Positions 9,643 through 61,516 of a stretch of DNA of 64,000 nt are shown here, piece after piece. The position numbers and the translations under genes are program-made. The first letter of the stretch is position 1. Every line of letters starts with the position of its first letter. Source of the stretch: Patescibacteria group bacterium (GTDB taxonomy: Bacteria; Patescibacteriota; Minisyncoccia; Moranbacterales; UBA1568). Below the pieces are notes generated by a model. It searched no databases and was not told the DNA's origin. It saw nothing but the letters and a program-made list of their open reading frames with translations. Location: assembly GCA_038078615.1 (NCBI GenBank), contig JBBTWT010000007.1:1060-65059 (forward strand), read 5' to 3'.

Positions 9643-11697
9643 ATGCCGGTATTCCGTCTCCAATCACCCTATCAGCCGGCTGGCGATCAGCCTCAGGCGA
9701 TCGTGTCTCTGGTGCGCGGATTGCGCGAGGGCAAGCGTTCCCAGACATTGCTCGGCGTGACCGGATCCGGCAAGACCTTCACGATGGCCAATGTCATCGC
9801 GCAGATGGATAAGCCGGCGCTCGTCATCGCGCACAACAAGACGCTCGCGGCGCAGCTCGCGCAGGAATATCAGGAATTTTTTCCCGATCACGCCGTGCAT
9901 TATTTCGTCTCGTATTACGACTACTATCAGCCGGAAGCCTATATGCCGACGACGGATACGTATATCGAGAAAGACGCGCAGATCAATGCGGAGATCGATC
10001 GTCTGCGGCACGCCTCCACGCAGTCGCTCCTGACGCGCCGCGACGTGATCATCGTCGCTTCCGTCTCGTGCATCTACGGGTTGGGCAGTCCTGCGGAATA
10101 TGAGAAGGAGAATATGCGTCTCGAGACCGGTATGCCGTGCTCGCGGACGGAGCTCCTCCACCGGCTCGTATCCATCTTCTTCGAGCGTACCAATGCCGAT
10201 CTGTCTCCCGGGCAATTCCGGAGCATCGGCAACCGCATCGAGATCATGCCGATCTCGGAGAAATTCATCTACCTGCTGGAAATTATCGGCGGCCGACTGG
10301 GGAGCATCACGAAGATCGATCCGGTATCGCAGAAGATCCTCGATACTCCGACGACTATCTTTCTTTTTCCGACGAAGCACTTCATCACGGACAAGGATCA
10401 GAAAGATTTCGCGATACAGTCCATCCGTCTCGAGCTCGCAGCACGATTGCAGGAGCTCGAGGCCGAGGGGAAAATTCTCGAGGTGGAGCGGCTCAAGCGG
10501 CGCACGAATTATGACCTGGCGATGATGCAGGAGATCGGCTATTGCAGCGGCATCGAGAACTATTCACGCCATCTGTCCGGCAAGGAGCCTGGCGAGCCGC
10601 CGGAGACGCTGCTCTCATATTTCCCCCGCCGTCGTAAAAGCTCTGGCGGGCAGGCGCACACTGATGTTTGGGAGCCTGATTTTCTAACAATTATAGATGA
10701 GTCGCACGTGACTTTGCCGCAGCTCCGCGGGATGTACGCCGGCGATCAGGCGCGCAAGAAAACGCTCGTCGAGTACGGCTTCCGCCTGCCCTCCGCGCTC
10801 GATAACCGGCCGCTCCGCTCCGAGGAATTCATGGAGCGGGTAGGACAGATGGTGTTCACGTCCGCGACGCCGGCGGACTATGAACGCGAGACAAGCGGGC
10901 AGATCGTGGAACAGGTGATCCGTCCGACCGGTCTCATCGACCCGGAAGTGGCGGTGCTGCCGATTCATGAGACAAAAGAGTATCCTGGACAAATTCAGGA
11001 TTTTATCGCGCAGACTGAAGAAGAGGTGAAAAAAGGCGGGCGCGTGATCGCGACGACCTTGACAAAAAAGATGGCGGAGGACTTGAGTACGTATCTGAAA
11101 GAAAAGAACATCAAGTCCGAATACCTGCACAGCGATATCAAGACCATCGATCGCATCAAGATCCTGACCCGGTTCCGCAAGGGAGAGTTCGATTGTCTGG
11201 TGGGAGTGAATCTGCTCCGTGAGGGACTCGATCTTCCCGAGGTATCGTTCATCGGCATTCTCGATGCGGACAAGGAGGGATTTCTCCGATCGGAGACTTC
11301 TCTCATCCAGATCATCGGCCGGGCAGCGCGCAATGTGTCCGGCCGCGTCGTCTTGTATGCCGAACGCATTACCGGATCAATGGAGTATGCTCTCAGCGAG
11401 ACGAATCGGCGCAGGAAGCTCCAGATGGCGCACAATAAGCTGCACGGCATCACGCCGGCTACGATCAAGAAGACGATCCACGACATCACGGAAGCCTTGG
11501 AAAGCGAGCATGACAAGGCGGTGCGCGCCAACATCGGCCTGGACCGGGAGATATTCGCCAAGAACCCCGAGAAGCTCATCAGGCTGAAGGAAAAAGAGAT
11601 GCGGGAAGCGGTGAAGGCGCTGGACTTTGAAACGGCGGCGATCCTCCGCGACGAACTCGCCATACTGAGGGGAAAAACGGACAAGATGTTGGGATGA
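9643..11697 (+). CDS. uvrB: Excinuclease ABC subunit B
   Basis: GVTGSGKTFTMA, DESHVTLPQ, YGFRLPSALDNRPL, LREGLDLPEVS and the C-terminal UVR motif. Carries a 16-aa insertion at 10627-10674. Confidence 0.95.
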   Translation: MPVFRLQSPYQPAGDQPQAIVSLVRGLREGKRSQTLLGVTGSGKTFTMANVIAQMDKPALVIAHNKTLAAQLAQEYQEFFPDHAVHYFVSYYDYYQPEAYMPTTDTYIEKDAQINAEIDRLRHASTQSLLTRRDVIIVASVSCIYGLGSPAEYEKENMRLETGMPCSRTELLHRLVSIFFERTNADLSPGQFRSIGNRIEIMPISEKFIYLLEIIGGRLGSITKIDPVSQKILDTPTTIFLFPTKHFITDKDQKDFAIQSIRLELAARLQELEAEGKILEVERLKRRTNYDLAMMQEIGYCSGIENYSRHLSGKEPGEPPETLLSYFPRRRKSSGGQAHTDVWEPDFLTIIDESHVTLPQLRGMYAGDQARKKTLVEYGFRLPSALDNRPLRSEEFMERVGQMVFTSATPADYERETSGQIVEQVIRPTGLIDPEVAVLPIHETKEYPGQIQDFIAQTEEEVKKGGRVIATTLTKKMAEDLSTYLKEKNIKSEYLHSDIKTIDRIKILTRFRKGEFDCLVGVNLLREGLDLPEVSFIGILDADKEGFLRSETSLIQIIGRAARNVSGRVVLYAERITGSMEYALSETNRRRKLQMAHNKLHGITPATIKKTIHDITEALESEHDKAVRANIGLDREIFAKNPEKLIRLKEKEMREAVKALDFETAAILRDELAILRGKTDKMLG

Positions 11698-15947: not shown

Positions 15948-16646
15948 ATGACAGAGAACATCCGTGAGCGTTTTATAGTTACCGCAGACGATTACGGCAT
16001 CCGCCAGACAGCGGAGCCGATTTTGCGCTTGGCGCACGAGGGGAAGATCGATCGCGTGGCGGTGCTGATCCACTATGTCTCCGCCGAGCAGGCGGAAGCG
16101 CTCAAGGCGACGGGAGTGAAGATCGACCTGCATCTGGAACTGATCGGGCTTCTGAAAAGCGGGGAGAAGATGCATGAGAGCGTTCTCGTGCGGAGCGTCA
16201 ATTTCATATTCCGCCGTATCGCCGGGCTGGCGACCGCGAAGAAAGTCGAGCAGGAATGGAGAGACCAGATCGTGCGCTTCCGCGATATCTTCGGCCGTCT
16301 GCCCGACGGGCTCAATTCCCATGAACATCTGCACTGTTTCCCGCCGTTTTTCAGGGTGTTCACGAAACTGGCGGAAGAATACCGCATATCGTATATCCGT
16401 TTCGGGAAGAAAGGCATGCTCACCGGCCTGCATGGGGCGTTCATCGGCGAGATTCTCGCTTTCTTCTGGAAGCGGACGCATCCCGCCTATGTCAAGACGG
16501 CGCTCGCGACATCCGATTATCTCGTGAGCCTGGATTGGCTCGCGGATTTCAAGTCTTTCAGCGAACGGCTGCCCTCCGGCAGTATCGAGCTGGTCGTGCA
16601 TCTGGAGCGCGAGGAGGATTATCGGATCATACTCGAGTATTTCTGA
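15948..16646 (+). CDS. ChbG/HpnK (YdjC-like) carbohydrate deacetylase family protein
   Basis: [15 protein letters not shown] and LNSHEHLH match the YdjC-family metal-site pattern. Confidence 0.7.
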
Positions 16647-16667
16647 CGGATCTCCCGTTTTTTTGTC

Positions 16668-16696
16668 TTGATATGCCTGCCTTTCGATGGTATACT
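16668..16696 (+). promoter_or_regulatory. Promoter for the first uvrA paralog
   Basis: TTGATA (16668-16673), 17-nt spacer, TGgTATACT (16688-16696). Confidence 0.55.
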
Positions 16697-16717
16697 GCCT
16701 TTCCTATATTTTCGCAT

Positions 16718-19318
<2,601 letters not shown>

Positions 19319-19369
19319 GAGTGGTGGTATACTGCAAGCGAGACATCTCTTACTTTTTAATATGCATAT

Positions 19370-19945
19370 ATGGACACTCCTTCCCCGCAGGTTTCTCCGG
19401 CATCAGGCATGCAGAAGTCGAGCATCATCAAGTGGGCGCTCATCATCGGTATCACGATCGTCGTGAATCTTTTCATCACGTATCTCGTGGATGTGATCTA
19501 TCAGTCGCCGGAGTTCACTGATTTCTGCCCGGAACAGCAGATCAATCGTGCGATAGAGACCGAGGCGGCCTGTCTCGAGATCGGCGGGCAGTGGAACGAG
19601 AATATCGAAGCGAAGAGCATGACGCCGCAGATAACGGTACCCGTGCCGGCCGGCTACTGCAACACGACCTATACGTGCAGCAAGCAGTATGACGATGTGA
19701 TGAAAGTCTACAACCGCAATGTCTTCGTCGTCTTCATCATCGCCGGTATCCTGCTTCTGATCGGCAGCGTATTTCTCAAGGGTGTCGAGGCGGTATCGCT
19801 CGGACTTTCGTTCGGCGGCGTGCTCGCGCTCATCATCGGTTCGGTACGGTACTGGTCGGATATGAACGATATCCTGCGGGTCATCCTGCTCGGCATCGCG
19901 CTTGCGGGACTCATCTACGTCGCGTGGAAAAAGTTTAAGGACTGA
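19370..19945 (+). CDS. Hypothetical multi-pass membrane protein
   Basis: Three hydrophobic segments with a Cys-containing extracytoplasmic loop. Confidence 0.6.
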   Translation: MDTPSPQVSPASGMQKSSIIKWALIIGITIVVNLFITYLVDVIYQSPEFTDFCPEQQINRAIETEAACLEIGGQWNENIEAKSMTPQITVPVPAGYCNTTYTCSKQYDDVMKVYNRNVFVVFIIAGILLLIGSVFLKGVEAVSLGLSFGGVLALIIGSVRYWSDMNDILRVILLGIALAGLIYVAWKKFKD

Positions 19946-19978
19946 TCCTTGAACAGTTCAAAAAATATCTTGAGGTAA

Positions 19979-20203
19979 ACCCCGTTAGAAGCTCACACGG
20001 GGAATTACACTCTGTGTGATCTGAAATTAACGGGCATTTATTCCCGTTAGAGAGAGGGTACAATTGTGATCGCTTCCATTCCGAGAATATCTGTTCATGG
20101 TCGGTATCTATCATATCGTATGTATGGTATCCCATTGCAACTGTGATCTCTAACGGGACTTGTCCCCGCGACAAGCCACAAGGCGTTCTGCTTCTAACGG
20201 GGT
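19979..20203. repeat. Nested inverted-repeat structure with five TAACGGG/CCCGTTA heptamers
   Basis: Outer 14-bp perfect IR: ACCCCGTTAGAAGC (19979-19992) with GCTTCTAACGGGGT (20190-20203). Inner 12-bp IR: 20042-20053 with 20047-20058. Local hairpin: 20028-20034 with 20043-20049. TGTGATC occurs three times (20015, 20065, 20142). Confidence 0.8.
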
Positions 20204-20341
20204 AAAAAAAGATGCCGCGGCACAGGGAACAAGGGGAGTTGTACCGTGTGCGTTGGCATCGAAGTCTGGCCGGTTTTCGGGAGGGGAGCTTCCCGGAGGA
20301 GACAGGCCAGACATGCAGAAGTCATAAGTCATGGGTCCTGG

Positions 20342-20584
20342 TTACAGGGGCAGCTGTTGCTGCTCTGTGATCGGCGCCTGTGGCACCGTCACTTGAATCT
20401 TTCGGCGAACTATCCGCCGCAGGACTACCCGGTAGAGGTAGCCATATCTTGTCCTGTCCCGTCCATGGAAACAGTTGTGTTGATGGGCCACTCGCATGAA
20501 TGCGAGGGAGAAACTTAGCCCATCCTCCATCAGTGCGACGACTTCATTAGTTATCACACCAACCTGGTCTTTTTTCTTGGGCAT
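20342..20584 (-). CDS. Hypothetical small basic protein
   Basis: 80-aa ORF. AGAGGTGGG lies 5 nt upstream of the ATG on the minus strand. No recognisable family. Confidence 0.35.
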   Translation of the reverse strand: MPKKKDQVGVITNEVVALMEDGLSFSLAFMRVAHQHNCFHGRDRTRYGYLYRVVLRRIVRRKIQVTVPQAPITEQQQLPL

Positions 20585-20711
20585 GGCCCACCTCTTGTTT
20601 GTTAATGAAACTATGCGTATATTATACCCCTTTGTCTGAAAAAGTCAAGGGTGTAGCCCGGTTGCTTTTGGCGTGTGAACCTGCTTGAATATTTAGGACG
20701 AAGGAAACTTT

Positions 20712-22157
20712 ATGGAGAAACTGTGGGAGAAAATATACACGCTTGAAGCGTTTCAGAAGAAAAACGCGTTGCCGGAAGCGCCGGGAGCGTATTTTTTCCT
20801 GGACGCGGGGAAAGAGTTGCTCTATATCGGCAAGGCGACCTCGCTTCGCGATCGGGTGAAGAGCTATTTTTCGCGCGACATCGCCCTCTCTCGCGGTCCG
20901 AAAATAATGCGGATGCTCGAACAGGCGCGTTTCATCGCGTATCGGCAGACGGACTCCGTTCTCGAGGCGCTGATCCTGGAATCCAGACTGATAAAAGAAC
21001 ATCAGCCTCCATACAACACTGATGCCAAAGACGACAAGAGCTACAACCATATCGCCATCACGCAAGAAAAATTTCCGCGCGTGCTCATCGTGCGCGGCCG
21101 CGACCTCGTAAACCGACAACCGACAATTTACCCTGTGAAATCCAGCATAGCTGGTCCGCCGAAGGCGGAATTTCATAGGGCAAGCAACCGACAACAAAAA
21201 ACAAGATACAAATACATATTCGGACCGTTTCCGCACGGTATGCAGCTGCGCGAGGCGCTCAAGATCATCCGCAAGCTGTTCCCCTTCCGGGACAAATGTT
21301 TACCCGCCGAAGTCTTGACGAAGGAGGGCATGCCATCAAAAAAAAGAACAGAGCTGAAGCCGTGTTTCAACAGGCAGATCGGCTTGTGTCCCGGAGTATG
21401 CACCGGCGAGATTTCCGCACGAGAGTACGGACGCATTATCAATCACATCCGCCTGTTCTTCGAAGGGCGCAAGAGCGTGCTTGTCAGAAAGCTGGAACGC
21501 GAGATGAAGACGGCGGCGAAACAGCTGGCATTCGAGCGGGCGAGCGAGATCAAGAAGACATTGTTCGGGCTGCGGCATATCCAGGATATGGCGCTGGTGA
21601 AGGACGACCAGCAGTTAACAGTGAACAGTCAACAAAAAACAATAAGGATCGAAGCTTATGATGTCGCGCATCTGGGGGGAGACGCGAGCGTGGGAGTGAT
21701 GGTCGTTTTGAGCAATGGCCAAGCAGACAAAGAATCTTATAGAAAATTCATTCTGCGCGGCGGACACAACGGCAATGACCTGACTGCGCTCCAAGAGATC
21801 CTGGCGCGCCGTCTGAAACATACCCCGCCCGCAACGTTTCGCAAGCGAAGCGCAGCGATTCGGGCAGGCGAGTGGCCGCTGCCGGATATCATCGTGGTGG
21901 ATGGCGGAGAGCTTCAAGTGAGGATGGCCCAGCAAGCCATCCTCAACTTAGCGGTTTCACCGCTAAGTAAACTGCGTGGTGGAATTTCGGTCGTGGGCGT
22001 GGTGAAGAATGCCAAGCATCAGCCCGAGCGCCTCATCGGACCAGAGACGCTGACGAAGCGTTTCAAAAAAGAAATCCTGCTCGCCAATAGCGAAGCGCAT
22101 CGTTTCGCCATCACCTTCCACCGCAAGCGCCGAGGAAAGGAGTTTCTGAAGATGTAG
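20712..22157 (+). CDS. uvrC: Excinuclease ABC subunit C, short form
   Basis: GIY-YIG (GAYFFLDAGKELLYIGKATSLRDRVKSYF ... LESRLIKEHQPPYN), UVR domain (LEREMKTAAKQLAFERASEIKK) and RNase-H-like nuclease (IEAYDVAHLGG). It ends at FHRKRRGKEFLKM with no (HhH)2 domain. In-frame insertion at 21108-21212. Confidence 0.9.
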   Translation: MEKLWEKIYTLEAFQKKNALPEAPGAYFFLDAGKELLYIGKATSLRDRVKSYFSRDIALSRGPKIMRMLEQARFIAYRQTDSVLEALILESRLIKEHQPPYNTDAKDDKSYNHIAITQEKFPRVLIVRGRDLVNRQPTIYPVKSSIAGPPKAEFHRASNRQQKTRYKYIFGPFPHGMQLREALKIIRKLFPFRDKCLPAEVLTKEGMPSKKRTELKPCFNRQIGLCPGVCTGEISAREYGRIINHIRLFFEGRKSVLVRKLEREMKTAAKQLAFERASEIKKTLFGLRHIQDMALVKDDQQLTVNSQQKTIRIEAYDVAHLGGDASVGVMVVLSNGQADKESYRKFILRGGHNGNDLTALQEILARRLKHTPPATFRKRSAAIRAGEWPLPDIIVVDGGELQVRMAQQAILNLAVSPLSKLRGGISVVGVVKNAKHQPERLIGPETLTKRFKKEILLANSEAHRFAITFHRKRRGKEFLKM

Positions 22158-22245
22158 CGGCGGTCTTTACAGTATCTCGAAAAGGGAGTATGCTGGGAAA
22201 CAATCGTATCTTTTTCAGACATACTTTACAGATAGCAGGCGTCTT

Positions 22246-25044
22246 ATGCCAGAGAAAAAGCCGATGATCGAGATTCGCGGCGCGCGGGTCAACAACCTGA
22301 AGAACGTGGACGTCGATATCCCTCGTGATGCTTTGGTGGTGGTGACCGGCTTGTCCGGTTCGGGCAAATCCTCATTAGCTTTCGATACTCTTTTCGCGGA
22401 AGCGAATCGGCGCTATGTCGAGTCGCTTTCTTCGTATGCGCGCAATTTTCTCGACGGATTCGACAAGCCGGACGTCGACGCGATCCACAACCTTTCGCCC
22501 GCCATCTCCATCGACCAGAAGAGCGTGTCGAGGAGCCCGCGTTCGACGGTCGGGACGATGACGGAGATCTATGATTACCTGCGTATCCTGTTCGCCAAGC
22601 TCGGGATTCCGCATTGTCCATCGTGCGGCAAGCGTCTCACAAGAAAGAGCGTGCGCGAGATACTCGAAGAGCTCCTCCTCCTGCCCGACAAGACGCCGCT
22701 CGCATTCATCGCGTATGGCAAGGCGCTCGCCGACAAGACCGAACGCGAGGCGCTCTCACTCATCAATGCCTGGGGATACGTACGGGTCCTGTTTCACGGG
22801 GAGCTCTCGCCGATCGCCGAAGCGATAGGACGCGCGTCCGCGACGGAAATCTCGGATATCGGCGTGGTCGTCGACCGTCTCGAGATCGACCTGTCCCGTC
22901 CCGACAAGGAGCGTATCCTCGATTCGCTCCAGACCGCGTTCCGCGTCGGCCAGGGGACGCTCACGCTCCGCATCAATGGTACCGGTGAAGAACGTATCTA
23001 CAACGAGGAATACCGCTGTGAAGAATGCCATATCGGGCTGCCGGAGTTCACGCCGAGCTGCTTTTCCTTCAACAGTCCCGAGGGCGCGTGCGAGAAGTGC
23101 GCGGGCCTTGGCGTGACGCTCGAATTCGATCCGGAACTCGTCATCCCCAACAAGAACCTGTCGCTCGCCGAAGGGGCGATCCGTCCGTGGAGCAAGATGA
23201 ACAGCGACCGCCACAGCGGCAACGGGCCGATGCAGTGGCTGCGCGACGCGAGCCGGCGGCACAAATTCTCGCTCGATATTCCGGTGAAGAAGCTCGCCGG
23301 TAAGCATTTCTCCCTCATACTGCACGGGGAAGGCGGCACGGAGCAGGATGCCTTTCCCGGCATCATCGCGCTTCTGGAGAAGAAATACCGCGAGACGAAA
23401 TCGGATCATCTGCGTACGGACATCGAGGCGTATATGCTGACCAAGCTCTGCCCTCTCTGCGAGGGGAAGCGCCTGAAGGCGGCATCGCTCGCCGTGAAGA
23501 TAGAGGGACTTTCTATCGATGATCTCGTGAAGCAGAGCGTCGATATGTTCCTGGAGAGGATGAAGCCGCTGCGGGAAAAATGCCTGAAGACGGGCGAGAA
23601 GAAGATGATCGATCCCTTGTTCCGCGAGATGGAGATGCGGCTCTCCGCCGTGGAAAAAGTGGGACTCGGATATCTCGAGCTCTCGCGCGGCGCCGATACG
23701 CTGTCCGGAGGAGAGGCGCAGCGTATCCGCCTGTCAGTGCAGATGAAATCTGGGCTTTCCGGCATCATCTATGTCCTCGACGAGCCGTCGATCGGGCTGC
23801 ACAGCCGCGATACGGAACGCCTGATCAACGCGCTCGAGGATCTGCGGAAAGCGAACAATTCTCTCGTGATCGTCGAGCATGACGTGGCGATCATGCGCCG
23901 GGCGGACTATATCATCGATCTGGGTCCGGGCGCCGGCAGCGAGGGCGGCGAGATCATCTTCGCGGGCACGCCGGACAAGCTGATGCGCTCGAAGCTCCTG
24001 ACCGGCGAATACCTCTCCGGCAAACGCAGCATATCCGAGAAGAAGAAGGCGCGTCGTCTGAGCGAAGAGGCGATCACTGTTTTCGGCGCGACGGAACACA
24101 ATCTGAAGAATGTCGACGTGAAGATCCCGCTCGGGATGCTCGTGGCGGTTTCCGGCGTCTCGGGATCGGGCAAATCGAGCCTGGTGCATGACATCCTGTC
24201 CCGGGCGCTGTCGAAATATTTCTATCATGCCAAGGCCGAGCCGGGCGCGCACAGGAAGATCGAGGGGATCTCGAATATAGACAAGGTGATCGCCGTGACG
24301 CAGGATCCGATCGGACGGACGCCGCGTTCGAACGCGGCGACGTATACCGGCATCTTCAGCCTGATCCGCGACCTGTTCGCGGCGACGACGGAAGCCGAGC
24401 GCGAGAAATATTCCGCCAGTCATTTCAGCTTCAATATGCGCGGCGGCCGCTGCGAGGCATGCCAGGGCGGCGGATTGAAGAAGATCGAGATGTATCTCCT
24501 GCCGGATGTCTACGTACCGTGCGAAGTCTGTCAGGGGACGAGATACAACGCGAAGACGCTCTCGATCGAATATCGCGGAATGAATATCGCGGCCGTGCTC
24601 CGCATGACGGTCACGGAAGCGCGCCGCTTCTTCCTGGATCAGCCGATGATCGAAGAGAAGCTGCGCGTGCTCGAGGAAGTCGGTCTCGGATATCTGGTAC
24701 TCGGACAGAGCGCGACCAACCTCTCCGGAGGAGAGGCGCAGCGTATCAAGCTCGCGACAGAACTGGCACGAAAATCGACCGGCAAGACGCTCTATATCCT
24801 CGACGAGCCGACGATCGGCCTGCATTTCGAGGATGTGCGGCGCCTGCTCGAGGTGCTCGAAGCGCTGACGGACAAAGGCAACAGCGTGCTCGTCGTGGAG
24901 CACAATCTCGATGTCATCCGCTCGGCGGATTGGGTGCTGGAGCTCGGTCCGGACGGCGGCGCCAAGGGCGGGGAGCTCATCTTCTCCGGACCGCCGGACA
25001 AATTGAAAAACTGCAAGCGTTCATTCACGGCGAAATATCTATAA
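22246..25044 (+). CDS. uvrA: Excinuclease ABC subunit A (full-length type)
   Basis: [20 protein letters not shown] twice, [11 protein letters not shown], Zn modules, and an insertion-domain-length segment between CAGLG and CPLCEGKRL. Confidence 0.95.
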
Positions 25045-36247: not shown

Positions 36248-36283
36248 ACCTTACTTTTTATGCAATTGCATAAAAAGTAAGGT
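36248..36283. repeat. Perfect AT-rich palindrome, copy 1 of 2
   Basis: ac-CTTACTTTTTATGCAATTGCATAAAAAGTAAG-gt. The identical 32-nt core recurs at 61482-61513. Confidence 0.95.
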
Positions 36284-40637: not shown

Positions 40638-40780
40638 GAATTTTCAATTTTTAGTTTTCAATTTTCAAACAATGATACGATGATCCAATTTTCGAAAGCT
40701 TTCCGGTTCCGCAAGGCACATTTGAAAATTAGGTCATTGGAAATTCATTAGAAATTGAAAATTGAAAATTGGAAATTGAC
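40638..40780. repeat. Inverted arrays of heptanucleotide repeats, (TTTTCAA)n and (GAAAATT)n, between mraZ and rsmH
   Basis: Left arm 40641-40668: TTTTCAA TTTTTAG TTTTCAA TTTTCAA. Right arm 40750-40780: GAAATT GAAAATT GAAAATT GGAAATT GAC. The arms are mutually complementary. Confidence 0.9.
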
Positions 40781-46979: not shown

Positions 46980-47534
46980 ATGAATGTCATCAAAACAGCC
47001 TTAGATGGAGTGATGATCATCGAGCCGGACGTATTCGCGGACGAGCGCGGGTTTTTTATGGAGGCGTTCGAGGAAAAACGGTATCAACGGGCATTGGGTC
47101 TGTCAGAACACTTCGTACAGGATAATCTATCACTGTCGAAAAAGGGTGTGCTGCGCGGCCTGCACTATCAAGCGCCGCCCTATGGACAGGGGAAACTCAT
47201 CTCCGTGCTCTCGGGTAGCGTGCTCGACGTGGCGGTGGATATCCGCCATGGTTCGCCGACGTTCGGCCAGCATACCACAATAGAACTTTCCGGCGAGAAT
47301 CATCGACAGTTGTTCGTGTCGGCGGGATTCGCGCACGGGTTCGTCGTGCTCTCCGACTCGGCGCTGTTCGCGTACAAATGCACCAACGTGTATTCGCAGG
47401 AGCATGATCGCAGCATCCTCTGGAACGATCCGGCACTCGGCATCGACTGGGGCATAGCCGATCCGATCGTCTCGGAGAAGGATCAGCGGCATCCGCTGCT
47501 TGCGGACATCCCGCAGGAATATCACTTTTCATGA
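46980..47534 (+). CDS. rfbC: dTDP-4-dehydrorhamnose 3,5-epimerase
   Basis: DERGFF.E, RGLHYQ, and the GFAHGF cupin pattern. Confidence 0.9.
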   Translation: MNVIKTALDGVMIIEPDVFADERGFFMEAFEEKRYQRALGLSEHFVQDNLSLSKKGVLRGLHYQAPPYGQGKLISVLSGSVLDVAVDIRHGSPTFGQHTTIELSGENHRQLFVSAGFAHGFVVLSDSALFAYKCTNVYSQEHDRSILWNDPALGIDWGIADPIVSEKDQRHPLLADIPQEYHFS

Positions 47535-47538
47535 TTAT

Positions 47539-47655
47539 AGAAAAGATTTCAAAAGTTTTTAGATGAACCGCGCCGAAGCGGTTTCGCCACATGGTTCCCT
47601 GCCCGAAGTGCTACATCGTGGCAGGCGGGCCTAAAAAACTTTTGAAATCTTTTCT
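47539..47655. repeat. Rod-like hairpin (MITE-like) element, long copy
   Basis: 23/24-bp terminal inverted repeats: AGAAAAGATTTCAAAAGTTTTTAG with CTAAAAAACTTTTGAAATCTTTTCT. The inner core is shared with 25098-25136. Carries an extra hairpin CTGCC..GGCAG. Confidence 0.9.
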
Positions 47656-47690
47656 GGAAGCTGTCTTTATCTTTAGTGACCTATCTCTTT

Positions 47691-48668
47691 ATGAAACTAT
47701 TAGTTACAGGCGGAGCCGGTTTCATCGGTTCCAACTTCATACATCATATCCTTACGGCATATCCGGAATATCAGGTGACCAATCTGGACGCCTTGACGTA
47801 CGCGGGGAATCTGGAAAATCTGAAAATATGGGAACATGATGCGCGCCACCGTTTCGTGAAGGGCGGCGTGACAGACAAGGAGCTCGTGGATGGTCTCGTC
47901 GCGGCGTGCGATATCGTGGTGCATTTCGCGGCGGAGTCCCACGTAGATCGCTCGATTATGGATCCGAGCGCTTTCGTGGATACCAATATCAGAGGAACGT
48001 ACGTGTTGCTTGAAGCGGCGCGCAAACACGGCAGGCGTTTCCATCATATCTCGACGGACGAGGTATTCGGTGCGCTCGGTCCGGATGATGCACCGTTTGA
48101 CGAGGAGACAGCGTATGACCCGCGTAGTCCCTACAGCGCGTCGAAAGCGGCGTCGGACCATCTGGCGCGCGCGTATTTCCATACCTATGGTCTGCCGGTC
48201 ACGATTTCCAACTGCTCCAACAATTATGGGCCATACCATCTGCCGGAGAAACTGATTCCGCTTGCAATCACGAATCTTATCGAAGGAAAGAAAGTGCCGG
48301 TCTATGGCGATGGTCTGCAGGTGCGTGACTGGCTCTACGTTGAGGATCATTGTAGGGCGATCGATCTCATCATCCATCAGGGGCAACTCGGCGAGACCTA
48401 CTGCGTCGGCGGGAACGGTGAGCGGGAGAATACCTGGATCGTGAAAAAACTGCTGGCAATGCTCGGCAAAGATGAGAGAATGATCGAATATGTGAAGGAT
48501 CGCCCCGGCCACGACCGTCGCTATGCCATCAATTTTTCAAAAATTCAGCAGGAGCTCGGCTGGCAGCCAACCGTGACTTTGGAAGAGGGTTTGCAAAAAA
48601 CGGTGAAGTGGTTCCAAGACAACAAATCCTGGTGGAAGAATGCCCGCCAGAAACGCTATCACGCCTAG
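47691..48668 (+). CDS. rfbB: dTDP-glucose 4,6-dehydratase
   Basis: VTGGAGFIGSNF, YSASKAASDHL, and the NYGPYHLPEKLIP motif. Confidence 0.95.
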   Translation: MKLLVTGGAGFIGSNFIHHILTAYPEYQVTNLDALTYAGNLENLKIWEHDARHRFVKGGVTDKELVDGLVAACDIVVHFAAESHVDRSIMDPSAFVDTNIRGTYVLLEAARKHGRRFHHISTDEVFGALGPDDAPFDEETAYDPRSPYSASKAASDHLARAYFHTYGLPVTISNCSNNYGPYHLPEKLIPLAITNLIEGKKVPVYGDGLQVRDWLYVEDHCRAIDLIIHQGQLGETYCVGGNGERENTWIVKKLLAMLGKDERMIEYVKDRPGHDRRYAINFSKIQQELGWQPTVTLEEGLQKTVKWFQDNKSWWKNARQKRYHA

Positions 48669-50080: not shown

Positions 50081-50149
50081 CATTCAGCGCGATGTTCTTC
50101 AGGAGGACGTTTGTGGGATGATCATCGTGTATATTGCTACATATCTACA

Positions 50150-50187
50150 CCTACACATCTATGTGCGACCGCACAGAGATGTGTAGG
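50150..50187. repeat. Palindromic repeat, copy 2 of 3
   Basis: CCTACACATCT-at-GTGCG-ac-CGCAC-ag-AGATGTGTAGG, ending 10 nt upstream of ATG 50198. Confidence 0.9.
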
Positions 50188-50197
50188 TCACAAAGGC

Positions 50198-50827: not shown

Positions 50828-50863
50828 CTACACATCTATGTGCGGTCGCATATAGATGTGTAG
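50828..50863. repeat. Palindromic repeat, copy 3 of 3
   Basis: CTACACATCTATGTGCGGTCGCATATAGATGTGTAG, starting 22 nt after the stop of the PaaX-like gene. Confidence 0.9.
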
Positions 50864-61478: not shown

Positions 61479-61516
61479 AGTCTTACTTTTTATGCAATTG
61501 CATAAAAAGTAAGACT
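61479..61516. repeat. Perfect AT-rich palindrome, copy 2 of 2
   Basis: agt-CTTACTTTTTATGCAATTGCATAAAAAGTAAG-act. The flanks differ from copy 1 but are still self-complementary. Confidence 0.95.

Follow-up and report, generated by a model that had tools for sequence, protein, structure and literature searches.

Nested inverted repeats upstream of uvrC in a Patescibacteria bacterium: probable copies of a short palindromic mobile element

The MITEs (miniature inverted-repeat transposable elements) of bacteria, such as Correia/NEMIS in Neisseria, RUP in pneumococci and MITEAba12, are non-coding palindromic elements of ~70-160 bp, which possess terminal inverted repeats (TIRs) and short target-site duplications (TSDs), are dispersed in copies co-transcribed with their neighbours, and occur nested or in tandem. 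A cluster of inverted repeats resembling them in these respects lies in the interval 19946-20711 of a 64,000-nucleotide stretch of DNA from a Patescibacteria group bacterium (GenBank assembly GCA_038078615.1, contig JBBTWT010000007.1, positions 1,060 to 65,059; hereafter the window), between a gene for a 191-aa protein and uvrC. We consider it likely that these repeats are two nested copies of a short, non-autonomous palindromic element of the MITE type, that the terminator beside them is that of a gene for an 80-aa protein, and that this small gene is real and separate from the repeats.

The family to which the two copies would belong can be compared with several described systems. Its termini, YCCCGTTAGA, match no MITE family found (Rfam and literature string searches were negative), no parent insertion sequence (IS) is known and, in contrast to bacterial MITEs, its interiors are largely unrelated, its orientation relative to the gene is fixed and its sampled sites are mostly start codons. 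Mycobacterial interspersed repetitive units (MIRUs) are direct, often tandem units that are not known to have long terminal inverted repeats or to occur outside mycobacteria, whereas the elements described here are palindromic over their full length, have TIRs and a 4-bp TSD, occur in Patescibacteria and, as regards the window copies, lie off start codons. A possible likeness to MIRUs lies in the open reading frame (ORF) of the unit, which is coupled to the host gene at -4 spacing, minimising damage; ATGA overlaps of this kind occur in 18 of the 85 copies of the present family that have an intact upstream start. Rickettsia palindromic elements (RPEs) are likewise mobile palindromes that persist in or at the edge of essential genes, and some copies of our family are also in frame within genes. 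RPEs are mostly in-frame inserts in coding sequence and are not known to have a defined TIR or TSD or a start-codon preference, and there is no sequence relationship between the two. The repetitive extragenic palindromes of the REP/REPIN-RAYT systems (Y1 transposases) share with the present elements an extragenic palindromic nature, a replicative unit consisting of a long hairpin of ~100 nt and a single enzyme presumed to act in trans. REPs are not known to make a target duplication, whereas a 4-bp duplication accompanies the YCCCGTTAGA termini. These termini also lack a counterpart of the GTAG or CGTC tag that REPs carry at one end (PMC3733652). Integron attC sites have conserved ends, variable interiors, an imperfect palindrome with unpaired polarity bases, a similar size and a position at gene boundaries, as do our elements; in the latter, however, the order is GTTAGA...TCTAAC on either strand, direct repeats flank the element and there is no integrase or cassette-array context. 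IS1380/piggyBac-type transposons have ends CCC...GGG and a 4-bp A/T-rich target duplication. The likeness to these is a lead that extends to the end dinucleotides and the TSD length alone, and no transposase of any family was found beside a copy in the fetched loci.

The putative elements of the window are organised as follows.
19976-19979: left 4-bp target-site duplication TAAA of the outer element (read from the sequence, flank comparison)
19980-20202, sense on the plus strand: outer palindromic element, 223 bp
19980-19992 and 20190-20202, plus strand: termini of the outer element, CCCCGTTAGAAGC and GCTTCTAACGGGG
19993-20022, plus strand: internal hairpin of the outer left half, TCACACGGGG / CTCTGTGTGA, holding the first TGTGATC (predicted fold, repeat search)
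20016-20035, plus strand: GTGATCTGAAATTAACGGGC, holding the fifth heptamer at 20028-20034 (comparison with family right arms)
20042-20158, sense on the minus strand: inner palindromic element, 117 bp
20042-20053 and 20147-20158: termini of the inner element, TCCCGTTAGAGA and TCTCTAACGGGA
20203-20206: right target-site duplication TAAA of the outer element, within an A7/T7 run (sequence, flank comparison)

Two perfect inverted repeats define the locus, one of 14 bp (19979-19992 with 20190-20203) and, nested within it, one of 12 bp. Both had been reported in a first-pass annotation of the interval. Repeat search confirmed the former; the latter also exists, but pairs 20042-20053 with 20147-20158 and not, as had been given, with 20047-20058. 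The annotation was likewise right about the local hairpin TAACGGG-N8-CCCGTTA (20028-20034 with 20043-20049), about five occurrences of the heptamer TAACGGG/CCCGTTA, and about three of TGTGATC (at 20015, 20065 and 20142), two of which lie directly upstream of a heptamer. All five heptamers of the entire 64-kb window are located within 19981-20201. As 4.36 would be expected window-wide, their number is at chance level and the signal is their clustering; similarly, the nine occurrences of TGTGATC in the window equal expectation and are clustered locally only. The 9-mer TCTAACGGG, likewise restricted to 19981-20201, occurs four times against 0.31 expected, and none of 100 shuffles reached four.

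The arms of the outer element, which belong to the 14-bp inverted repeat, match at 13 of 13 positions, including the three that are variable in the family (AGC/GCT). The right arm, TCTGCTTCTAACGGG, has a 15-nt identity to the right arms of copies in L122, L128, L138, L140, L148, L161, L167 and L199 (labels from L001 onwards denote fetched DNA stretches) and includes the unpaired YCT that marks polarity in the family, which places the sense of the outer copy on the plus strand. The TAAA direct repeats around it, which the first-pass annotation did not include, also flank copies in L151, L197, L126 and L187. The inner copy has arms matching at 12 of 13 positions and carries its polarity mark, ..GTACCCT CTC TCTAACGGGA, on the minus strand. 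Its length of 117 nt is one of the two commonest in the family, and its terminus TCCCGTTAGAGA recurs identically in L084 and in numerous copies from metagenomes. With the inner copy taken out, the outer element measures 106 bp, a typical family size. The window contains just these two copies, even with up to two mismatches allowed. The segment GTGATCTGAAATTAACGGGC resembles a degenerate right arm (family pattern ..GATCT RYY TCTAACGGGA) and, judged from its letters, could be what is left of a third copy, or else pair with 20043-20049 in an internal hairpin. The stretch 19980-20036 was considered as a separate small element and rejected, as its candidate right arm matches at 7 of 13 positions and 19980-19992 pairs perfectly with 20190-20202. 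ORFs of 52, 79 and 90 aa in the interval were rejected as genes because tblastn found no homologues; the 79-aa ORF, on the minus strand, is one of those overlapping the elements, which have no coding capacity of their own. For the same reason we dropped the possibility that GAGG...ATG at 19972/20212 is a real gene split by an element.

The family was first met in a scan for perfect inverted repeats across 80 Patescibacteria loci fetched via UvrC (all fetched loci amount to 1.68 Mb), where the same arm was found in L084, a distant genome in which TCCCGTTAGAGAT...ATCTCTAACGGGA lies between ATP-synthase genes. Motif searches added copies in L053 and L065, also from distant Patescibacteria genomes, and a pattern scan of metagenomes (TCCCGTTAGA-N72-102-TCTAACGGGA) matched at least 120 stretches. 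The family termini read YCCCGTTAGA plus three variable nucleotides at one end, and three complementary nucleotides plus TCTAACGGGR at the other. The matches listed, genomes and metagenome combined, comprise at least 133 copies, which measure 71-156 bp and most often 117 or 120 bp. Identical 4-bp flanks are present in 83 of the 133 listed copies. The words used include TGAA (27), its complement TTCA (26), TGGA (6) and TAAA (3), as well as TGAG, TGCG, CTCA, TCCA and others; the flanks are TTAG in L084, TGAA in L053 and L065, and TAAA around the outer copy of the window. Copies with C...G in place of T...A termini also exist, several of them flanked by TAAA like the window copy. The interiors are AT-rich and mostly unrelated, although nine pairs of copies have interiors that are 76-86% similar between unrelated flanks. 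Arm positions 1-13 are complementary in 103-112 of 112 copies, and positions 11-13, at which all four pair types are seen, covary in 103-111 of the 112. An unpaired YCT was seen on the right in 59 copies and on the left in 2, so that polarity relative to the adjacent gene is fixed, and in many copies a subterminal hairpin is confined to the right arm.

Mobility of the family is indicated by empty sites. At the atpB stop codon, where L084 carries a copy (11312-11390), the orthologous site is empty in L049, L078, L053 and L058: it reads ...CACTAG followed directly by TGAATAATCA..., with one copy of the duplicated word, whereas the filled site of L084 holds the element and a second TTAG. The site of the L065 copy is empty in L059, and the rebuilt empty sites of L084 and L065 align without interruption to the orthologous regions of other genomes. 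The corresponding expected empty-site sequence of the window locus is GAGGTAAAAAAAG. Nesting was also observed in L185, where one copy interrupts the right arm of another at its CTAA, and tandem copies were found in L090 and L202. The largest number of copies on one contig is four, in L197 (2864-2969, 4780-4886, 5674-5779 and 6366-6471). At least three of these four share with the copy in L204 (552-652) the site GGG-TTTA-CC, whose opposite strand codes for the G-F-T prepilin motif; at the fourth L197 site the right flank reads TAAATCCA. In L204, the insert and its duplication add 101+4 = 105 nt to a pilin-like gene, and the frame is kept. A viral collection yielded one match for the T...A termini and none for the C...G termini, which argues that the family is not phage-borne. 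A short palindrome in the Moraniibacteriota-like genome L013 (3789-3835, CCCCGTTACAGAGG...ATGTAACGGGG) has just the 7-mer core in common with the family and lacks duplicated flanks; it may have diverged from the family or may be a terminator. No description of the termini was found in the searchable literature, either by sequence string or by topic, and the family with YCCCGTTAGA...TCTAACGGGR ends appears to be undescribed and abundant in streamlined Patescibacteria genomes.

Typical members of the family reside on start codons. In 106 of 132 listed copies an ORF of at least 60 codons starts at the terminal A of the element, with ~7 more cut by contig ends, and the share of sampled copies placed exactly on a start codon is ~86%; a crude null from the pentamer ATGAA alone would give ~25-30%. 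By our own count, about 52 of 53 TGAA-flanked copies are at a start codon, and the upstream flank consensus is ATGAA. The downstream proteins are housekeeping proteins with native N-termini, among them the ribosomal proteins L31, S19, L22, S15, L17 and L9, HPF, Ddl, MurC, MnmA, BipA, PolA, PNPase, PurD, CTP synthase, trigger factor, FtsH and others. In L107, copies at 548-669 and 1033-1153 lie directly before rpsS and rplV, consecutive genes of a ribosomal-protein operon, which implies that these essential genes are expressed with a perfect hairpin of ~120 nt abutting the ATG. Copies away from start codons use like words (TAAA, TTAG, CTAA and TTTA); stop codons are among their sites, as is the G-F-T motif of pilin-like genes. 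Neither window copy is at a start codon: the outer one lies in the T-run of a terminator where two genes converge, and the inner one lies within the outer.

The ends of the element may explain how such positions are tolerated. The terminal A together with the duplicated TG would regenerate the ATG. A short ORF (M-x-P-V-R...) begins at the upstream start-codon copy; its frame is free of stops across the interior in 49 of 112 copies, compared with 17-20 for the other five frames and 13.6 +/- 3.4 for shuffles. Among the 85 copies with an intact upstream start, this ORF ends at the right-arm TAA, 4 nt before the ATG of the gene, in 23 and at the TGA of an ATGA overlap in 18; 4 are in-frame fusions and 40 stop earlier. 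A Shine-Dalgarno-like motif is present at 16 of the 112 sampled start sites. The short ORF would thus run into the right-arm TAA, into the TGA of the overlap, or fuse in frame with the gene, a geometry by which translation could melt the hairpin and pass to the host gene. It is in this way, through the construction of the element ends, that typical copies could survive exactly on start codons. We infer that the elements insert at loose T-R-A-A-like words and are kept where their ends neutralise the damage. Element and gene are arranged as translational coupling, whether by unfolding or by reinitiation, would require; a review of such coupling (PMC12548453) notes that start codons also appear to be the insertion sites of mycobacterial MIRUs, whose ORF is coupled at -4 spacing. 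The ends of the present elements appear built to restore the ATG and to hand ribosomes on in any frame, which makes the family an independent, second case of the MIRU strategy, its sole reported parallel. Genes with such elements can be mis-started or split by gene callers. They also offer a natural test bed for translation initiation beside a very stable hairpin, in a setting where Shine-Dalgarno-like motifs are few among the sampled start sites.

The remainder of the interval is occupied by the small gene and its signals.
20342-20584, minus strand: 80-aa gene, with homologues upstream of uvrC
20589-20594, minus strand: Shine-Dalgarno-like GAGGTG, 4 nt upstream of the ATG (read from the sequence)
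20648 to 20621, minus strand: sigma-70-like promoter TTGACT-16 nt-TATAAT, 11 of 12 matches (promoter scan)
20264-20312, minus strand: first hairpin of the 3' untranslated region (UTR) after the stop codon, GTCTGGCCGGT / ACAGGCCAGAC (repeat search, fold)
20260 to 20204, minus strand: intrinsic terminator, hairpin GATGCC...GGCATC from 20260 to 20211, then TTTTTTT from 20210 to 20204 (repeat search, fold)

The 80-aa ORF and its ribosome-binding site were identified correctly in the first-pass annotation, which overlooked the promoter and the terminator and regarded the ORF as an orphan. This last view is no longer tenable. At least 10 related genomes have homologues in the corresponding place, oriented divergently ahead of uvrC, and significant matches link ORFs of L006, L008, L009, L011, L013, L014, L015, L020, L021 and L023 (the protein of the window matches the L014 ORF with an E value of 4e-11). 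An exhaustive HMMER search identified nine further relatives of 33-46% identity; a word-indexed protein search returned only the protein itself, and its profile version three more. The aligned proteins share the motif F..AFA..AH.H.IWHH....YNYLF..V..RVKK; its looser form F..AF...AH.H.I.HH....YN.FF..V..RV, in proteins of 80-190 aa, marks the family and was seen in two alignments, and tblastn placed family members only at the position upstream of uvrC. On this comparative evidence, the ORF is a real gene of a small, fast-evolving, conserved and unnamed family that lies head-to-head with uvrC in Moraniibacteriota-like genomes. An AlphaFold2 model (predicted local distance difference test, pLDDT, 81.5) predicts helices at residues 7-20, 25-35 and 44-66, and thus a three-helix protein. 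The 80-aa protein had no match in Pfam, in the PDB by sequence, or in the PDB by Foldseek (best E 2.6). The head-to-head position is the sole functional hint for the family, and, being fixed, makes it a candidate partner or regulator of the nucleotide excision repair (NER) genes of Moraniibacteriota.

The terminator hairpin lies 82 nt past the stop codon of the small gene. On the minus strand its region folds with -50 kcal/mol (z -5.05), the hairpin being followed at once by U7. A scan with a terminator consensus did not list the site at 20204-20260, probably owing to the 6-nt loop on an interrupted stem. At the other end of the gene, DNA similarity between the interval and a relative was confined to 20608-20649 (L007, 82% over 45 nt), a stretch that includes the small gene's promoter, in the divergent control region shared with uvrC. 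The interval 19946-20711 is best read as three independent things, namely the nested elements, the 3' UTR of the small gene with its terminator, and the small gene itself, which is not linked to the repeats.

We assign the repeats to the MITE kind because of the terminal inverted repeats, the target duplications, the dispersed related copies and the empty sites. In the proposed sequence of events, the outer copy would have been inserted at TAAA in the terminator T-run between the convergent genes for the 191-aa and the 80-aa proteins. On the minus strand, the insertion point GAGG-TAAA-AAAAG corresponds to the T-run in the terminator of the small gene. A second copy (20042-20158) would then have been inserted into the first in the opposite orientation. 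Such a nested insertion explains why perfect inverted repeats are nested, why the heptamers cluster and why both strands fold so stably. The copies would have been mobilised in trans by a transposase making 4-bp staggered cuts at short T-R-A-A-like words. As the site is located between convergent genes, the insertion costs little; the window copies probably occupy a neutral spot and have no dedicated function, and the long hairpin may at most stabilise or end the 191-aa gene's transcript. In kind, the local feature is nothing unusual, being transposon debris in a neutral site.

Several observations weigh against this interpretation. The inner copy has no target-site duplication (its flanks are TTAT and CTTG), and the fifth heptamer (20028-20034) is not accounted for by a simple nesting of two copies. 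No presence/absence polymorphism was seen at the window site among the available copies of the locus, L001-L005, which are 100% identical to one another and thus carry no comparative information. In this genome, of which 64 kb were covered, one locus was seen, and multi-copy status here is unproven. As regards the family, the metagenome scan demanded exact T...A termini and a gap of 72-102 nt, which biases the sample towards ATG-regenerating copies. Roughly tens of the family matches could be due to chance, by our estimate for an assumed database of ~1e12 bases, and the lone match in the viral collection is about what chance would give there. An autonomous element or a transposase with these ends was not found in the 1.68 Mb of fetched loci, in which matching ends more than 300 bp apart were sought. 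Finally, the fixed orientation relative to genes and the perfect covariation of the arms are unlike the prediction for a simple DDE transposon with symmetric TIRs, and another mechanism, based on single-stranded DNA hairpins or acting at the RNA level, may be involved.

One such mechanism would be that the palindromes are moved through hairpin single-stranded DNA (by HUH/Y1 enzymes, as in REP/REPIN-RAYT and IS200/IS605) or an RNA intermediate, with insertion directed to start codons in place of selection for copies there. It would explain why the arms are perfectly complementary even at variable positions, why orientation to genes is strict and why the subterminal hairpin is found in the right arm only in many copies. 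The failure to find a transposase partner and the excess of start-codon copies (~86% against the ~25-30% expected from the pentamer) also fit. The 4-bp flank words, on the other hand, covary on both sides (TGAA, TGGA, TGCG, TAAA, TTAG and others) and so behave as a true staggered-cut duplication, which HUH/Y1 systems do not make; the GTAG/CGTC tag is absent, and insertions away from start codons use like words (TAAA, TTAG, CTAA, TTTA), as a loose target followed by selection would predict. We therefore regard this mechanism as improbable. The same flanking direct repeats, which are not made by inversion or att recombination, speak against the inverted repeats being recombination sites, i.e. 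the bounds of an inverton or att/attC-like sites of an integrated element. Perfect inverted repeats of 12-14 bp around segments of 100-200 bp near genes would suit such a role, and the GTTAGA and TCTAAC in the termini faintly recall integron core sites. However, the motif order is the reverse of that in attC (RYYYAAC...GTTRRRY), the essentially fixed gene-relative orientation in the assemblies (59 versus 2) is at odds with frequent inversion, none of the five genes adjoining the interval (16535-25044) encodes a recombinase domain, and the empty sites show no seam and contain the duplicated word once. This makes recombination sites a most improbable explanation. The first-pass annotation had suggested a recombination or attachment-site scar of a lost element; its idea of a mobile origin stands, but in place of a scar there are two complete non-autonomous TIR elements, the outer one with a TSD.

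The annotation had also proposed an RNA with alternative folds and iteron-like sites for the small protein, neither of which is supported. As a structured noncoding RNA (a small RNA, 3'-UTR element or attenuator), the 225-nt region would switch function through competing helices: 20043-20049 can pair with either 20028-20034 or 20151-20157, pairings that are mutually exclusive on paper, and each strand is much more stable when folded than its shuffled versions (-85.6 and -80.2 kcal/mol, z ~ -4.9 each). Equal folding of the two strands is, however, what is expected of a DNA palindrome, and among 112 family members the sense and antisense strands also did not differ in fold stability (p=0.085). 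The terminal 13-bp stems of these copies are almost wholly Watson-Crick, with no excess of G-U pairs on the sense strand. Rfam gave no match to the window interval at E<=10 and none in 15 typical family loci at E<=1. Both competing helices use the same 9-mer, which is explained by duplication of the element rather than by an RNA fold, and family interiors are unrelated. On the minus strand the element lies downstream of an intrinsic terminator. The comparison of relatives that the annotation had called for found no trace of the element in the same intergenic space of the closest relatives, L006 and L007, in which gene order is the same; in L007 there are only ~160 bp between the two genes. A structured RNA is thus very improbable. 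That the five heptamers are iterons or operators, bound by the basic 80-aa protein or another site-specific DNA-binding protein at a regulatory or partition/replication site, we find scarcely credible. The motifs are indeed clustered, in both orientations, beside a small basic helical protein with its own promoter. Yet the termini and the homologues of the protein occur apart: the termini are found at more than 130 loci without such a homologue nearby, and homologues upstream of uvrC in L006, L008, L011, L013, L014, L016, L019, L020, L021 and L023 belong to ten genomes without the paired CCCGTTAGA...TCTAACGGG, L013 having merely a 7-mer pair ~1.8 kb from its small gene. In addition, the sites lie beyond the terminator of the small gene and not at its promoter, and the predicted structure of the protein has no detectable match to a DNA-binding fold. 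A false lead is thereby removed for the window, where neither a riboswitch-like RNA nor an iteron array is supported, and the nested MITE-type copies remain the favoured reading.

The genes around the interval are the following.
16535-19318: UvrA-like gene
19370-19945, plus strand: 191-aa gene with no Pfam match, the membrane-protein gene of the first-pass annotation
20712-22157, plus strand: uvrC
22246-25044: second UvrA gene

The contig comes from a metagenome-assembled Patescibacteria genome (NCBI MEK9151155.1 and MEK9151156.1), and the nearest relatives of its UvrC belong to Candidatus Moraniibacteriota, at ~65% identity. No tRNA or transfer-messenger RNA genes were found in the interval. 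Two UvrA paralogues thus lie on either side of the locus. The UvrA DNA-binding domain (PF17755) is present in the second, and was not among the best 25 of 35 families for the first, which may be a UvrA of the class-II type. The window holds further palindromes at some distance. Near-identical perfect palindromes, CTTACTTTTTATGCAATTGCATAAAAAGTAAG, with arms of 16-17 bp and a 4-nt centre, are located at distant intergenic sites (36248-36283 and 61479-61516) and may form another family of repeated palindromes, or else be an operator or terminator common to both sites. In the gap that separates ORF 46980-47534 from ORF 47676-48668, at 47539-47655, the arms of a perfect 22-bp inverted repeat, AGAAAAGATTTCAAAAGTTTTT, surround a G+C-rich core of 73 nt; this palindrome is MITE-like, with termini unrelated to the YCCCGTTAGA family. 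Two hairpins ~680 bp apart (50149-50188 and 50828-50863) have a common arm, CCTACACATCTATGTGCG...AGATGTGTAGG, and the A+T-rich stretch 40639-40770 contains inverted repeats of the TTTTCAATTTTCAA type, of 12-14 bp and ~100 nt apart.

A bolder possibility, which we put forward tentatively and consider rather unlikely, is that the palindromes are an unrecognised class of Patescibacteria mobile elements specialised for start codons, with insertion directed there or with removal or bypass at the level of RNA or the ribosome. If this were true, hundreds of essential genes, including consecutive ribosomal-protein genes, would be expressed through a perfect hairpin of ~100 nt fused to the AUG, and the nested intergenic copies of the window would be rare off-target members.

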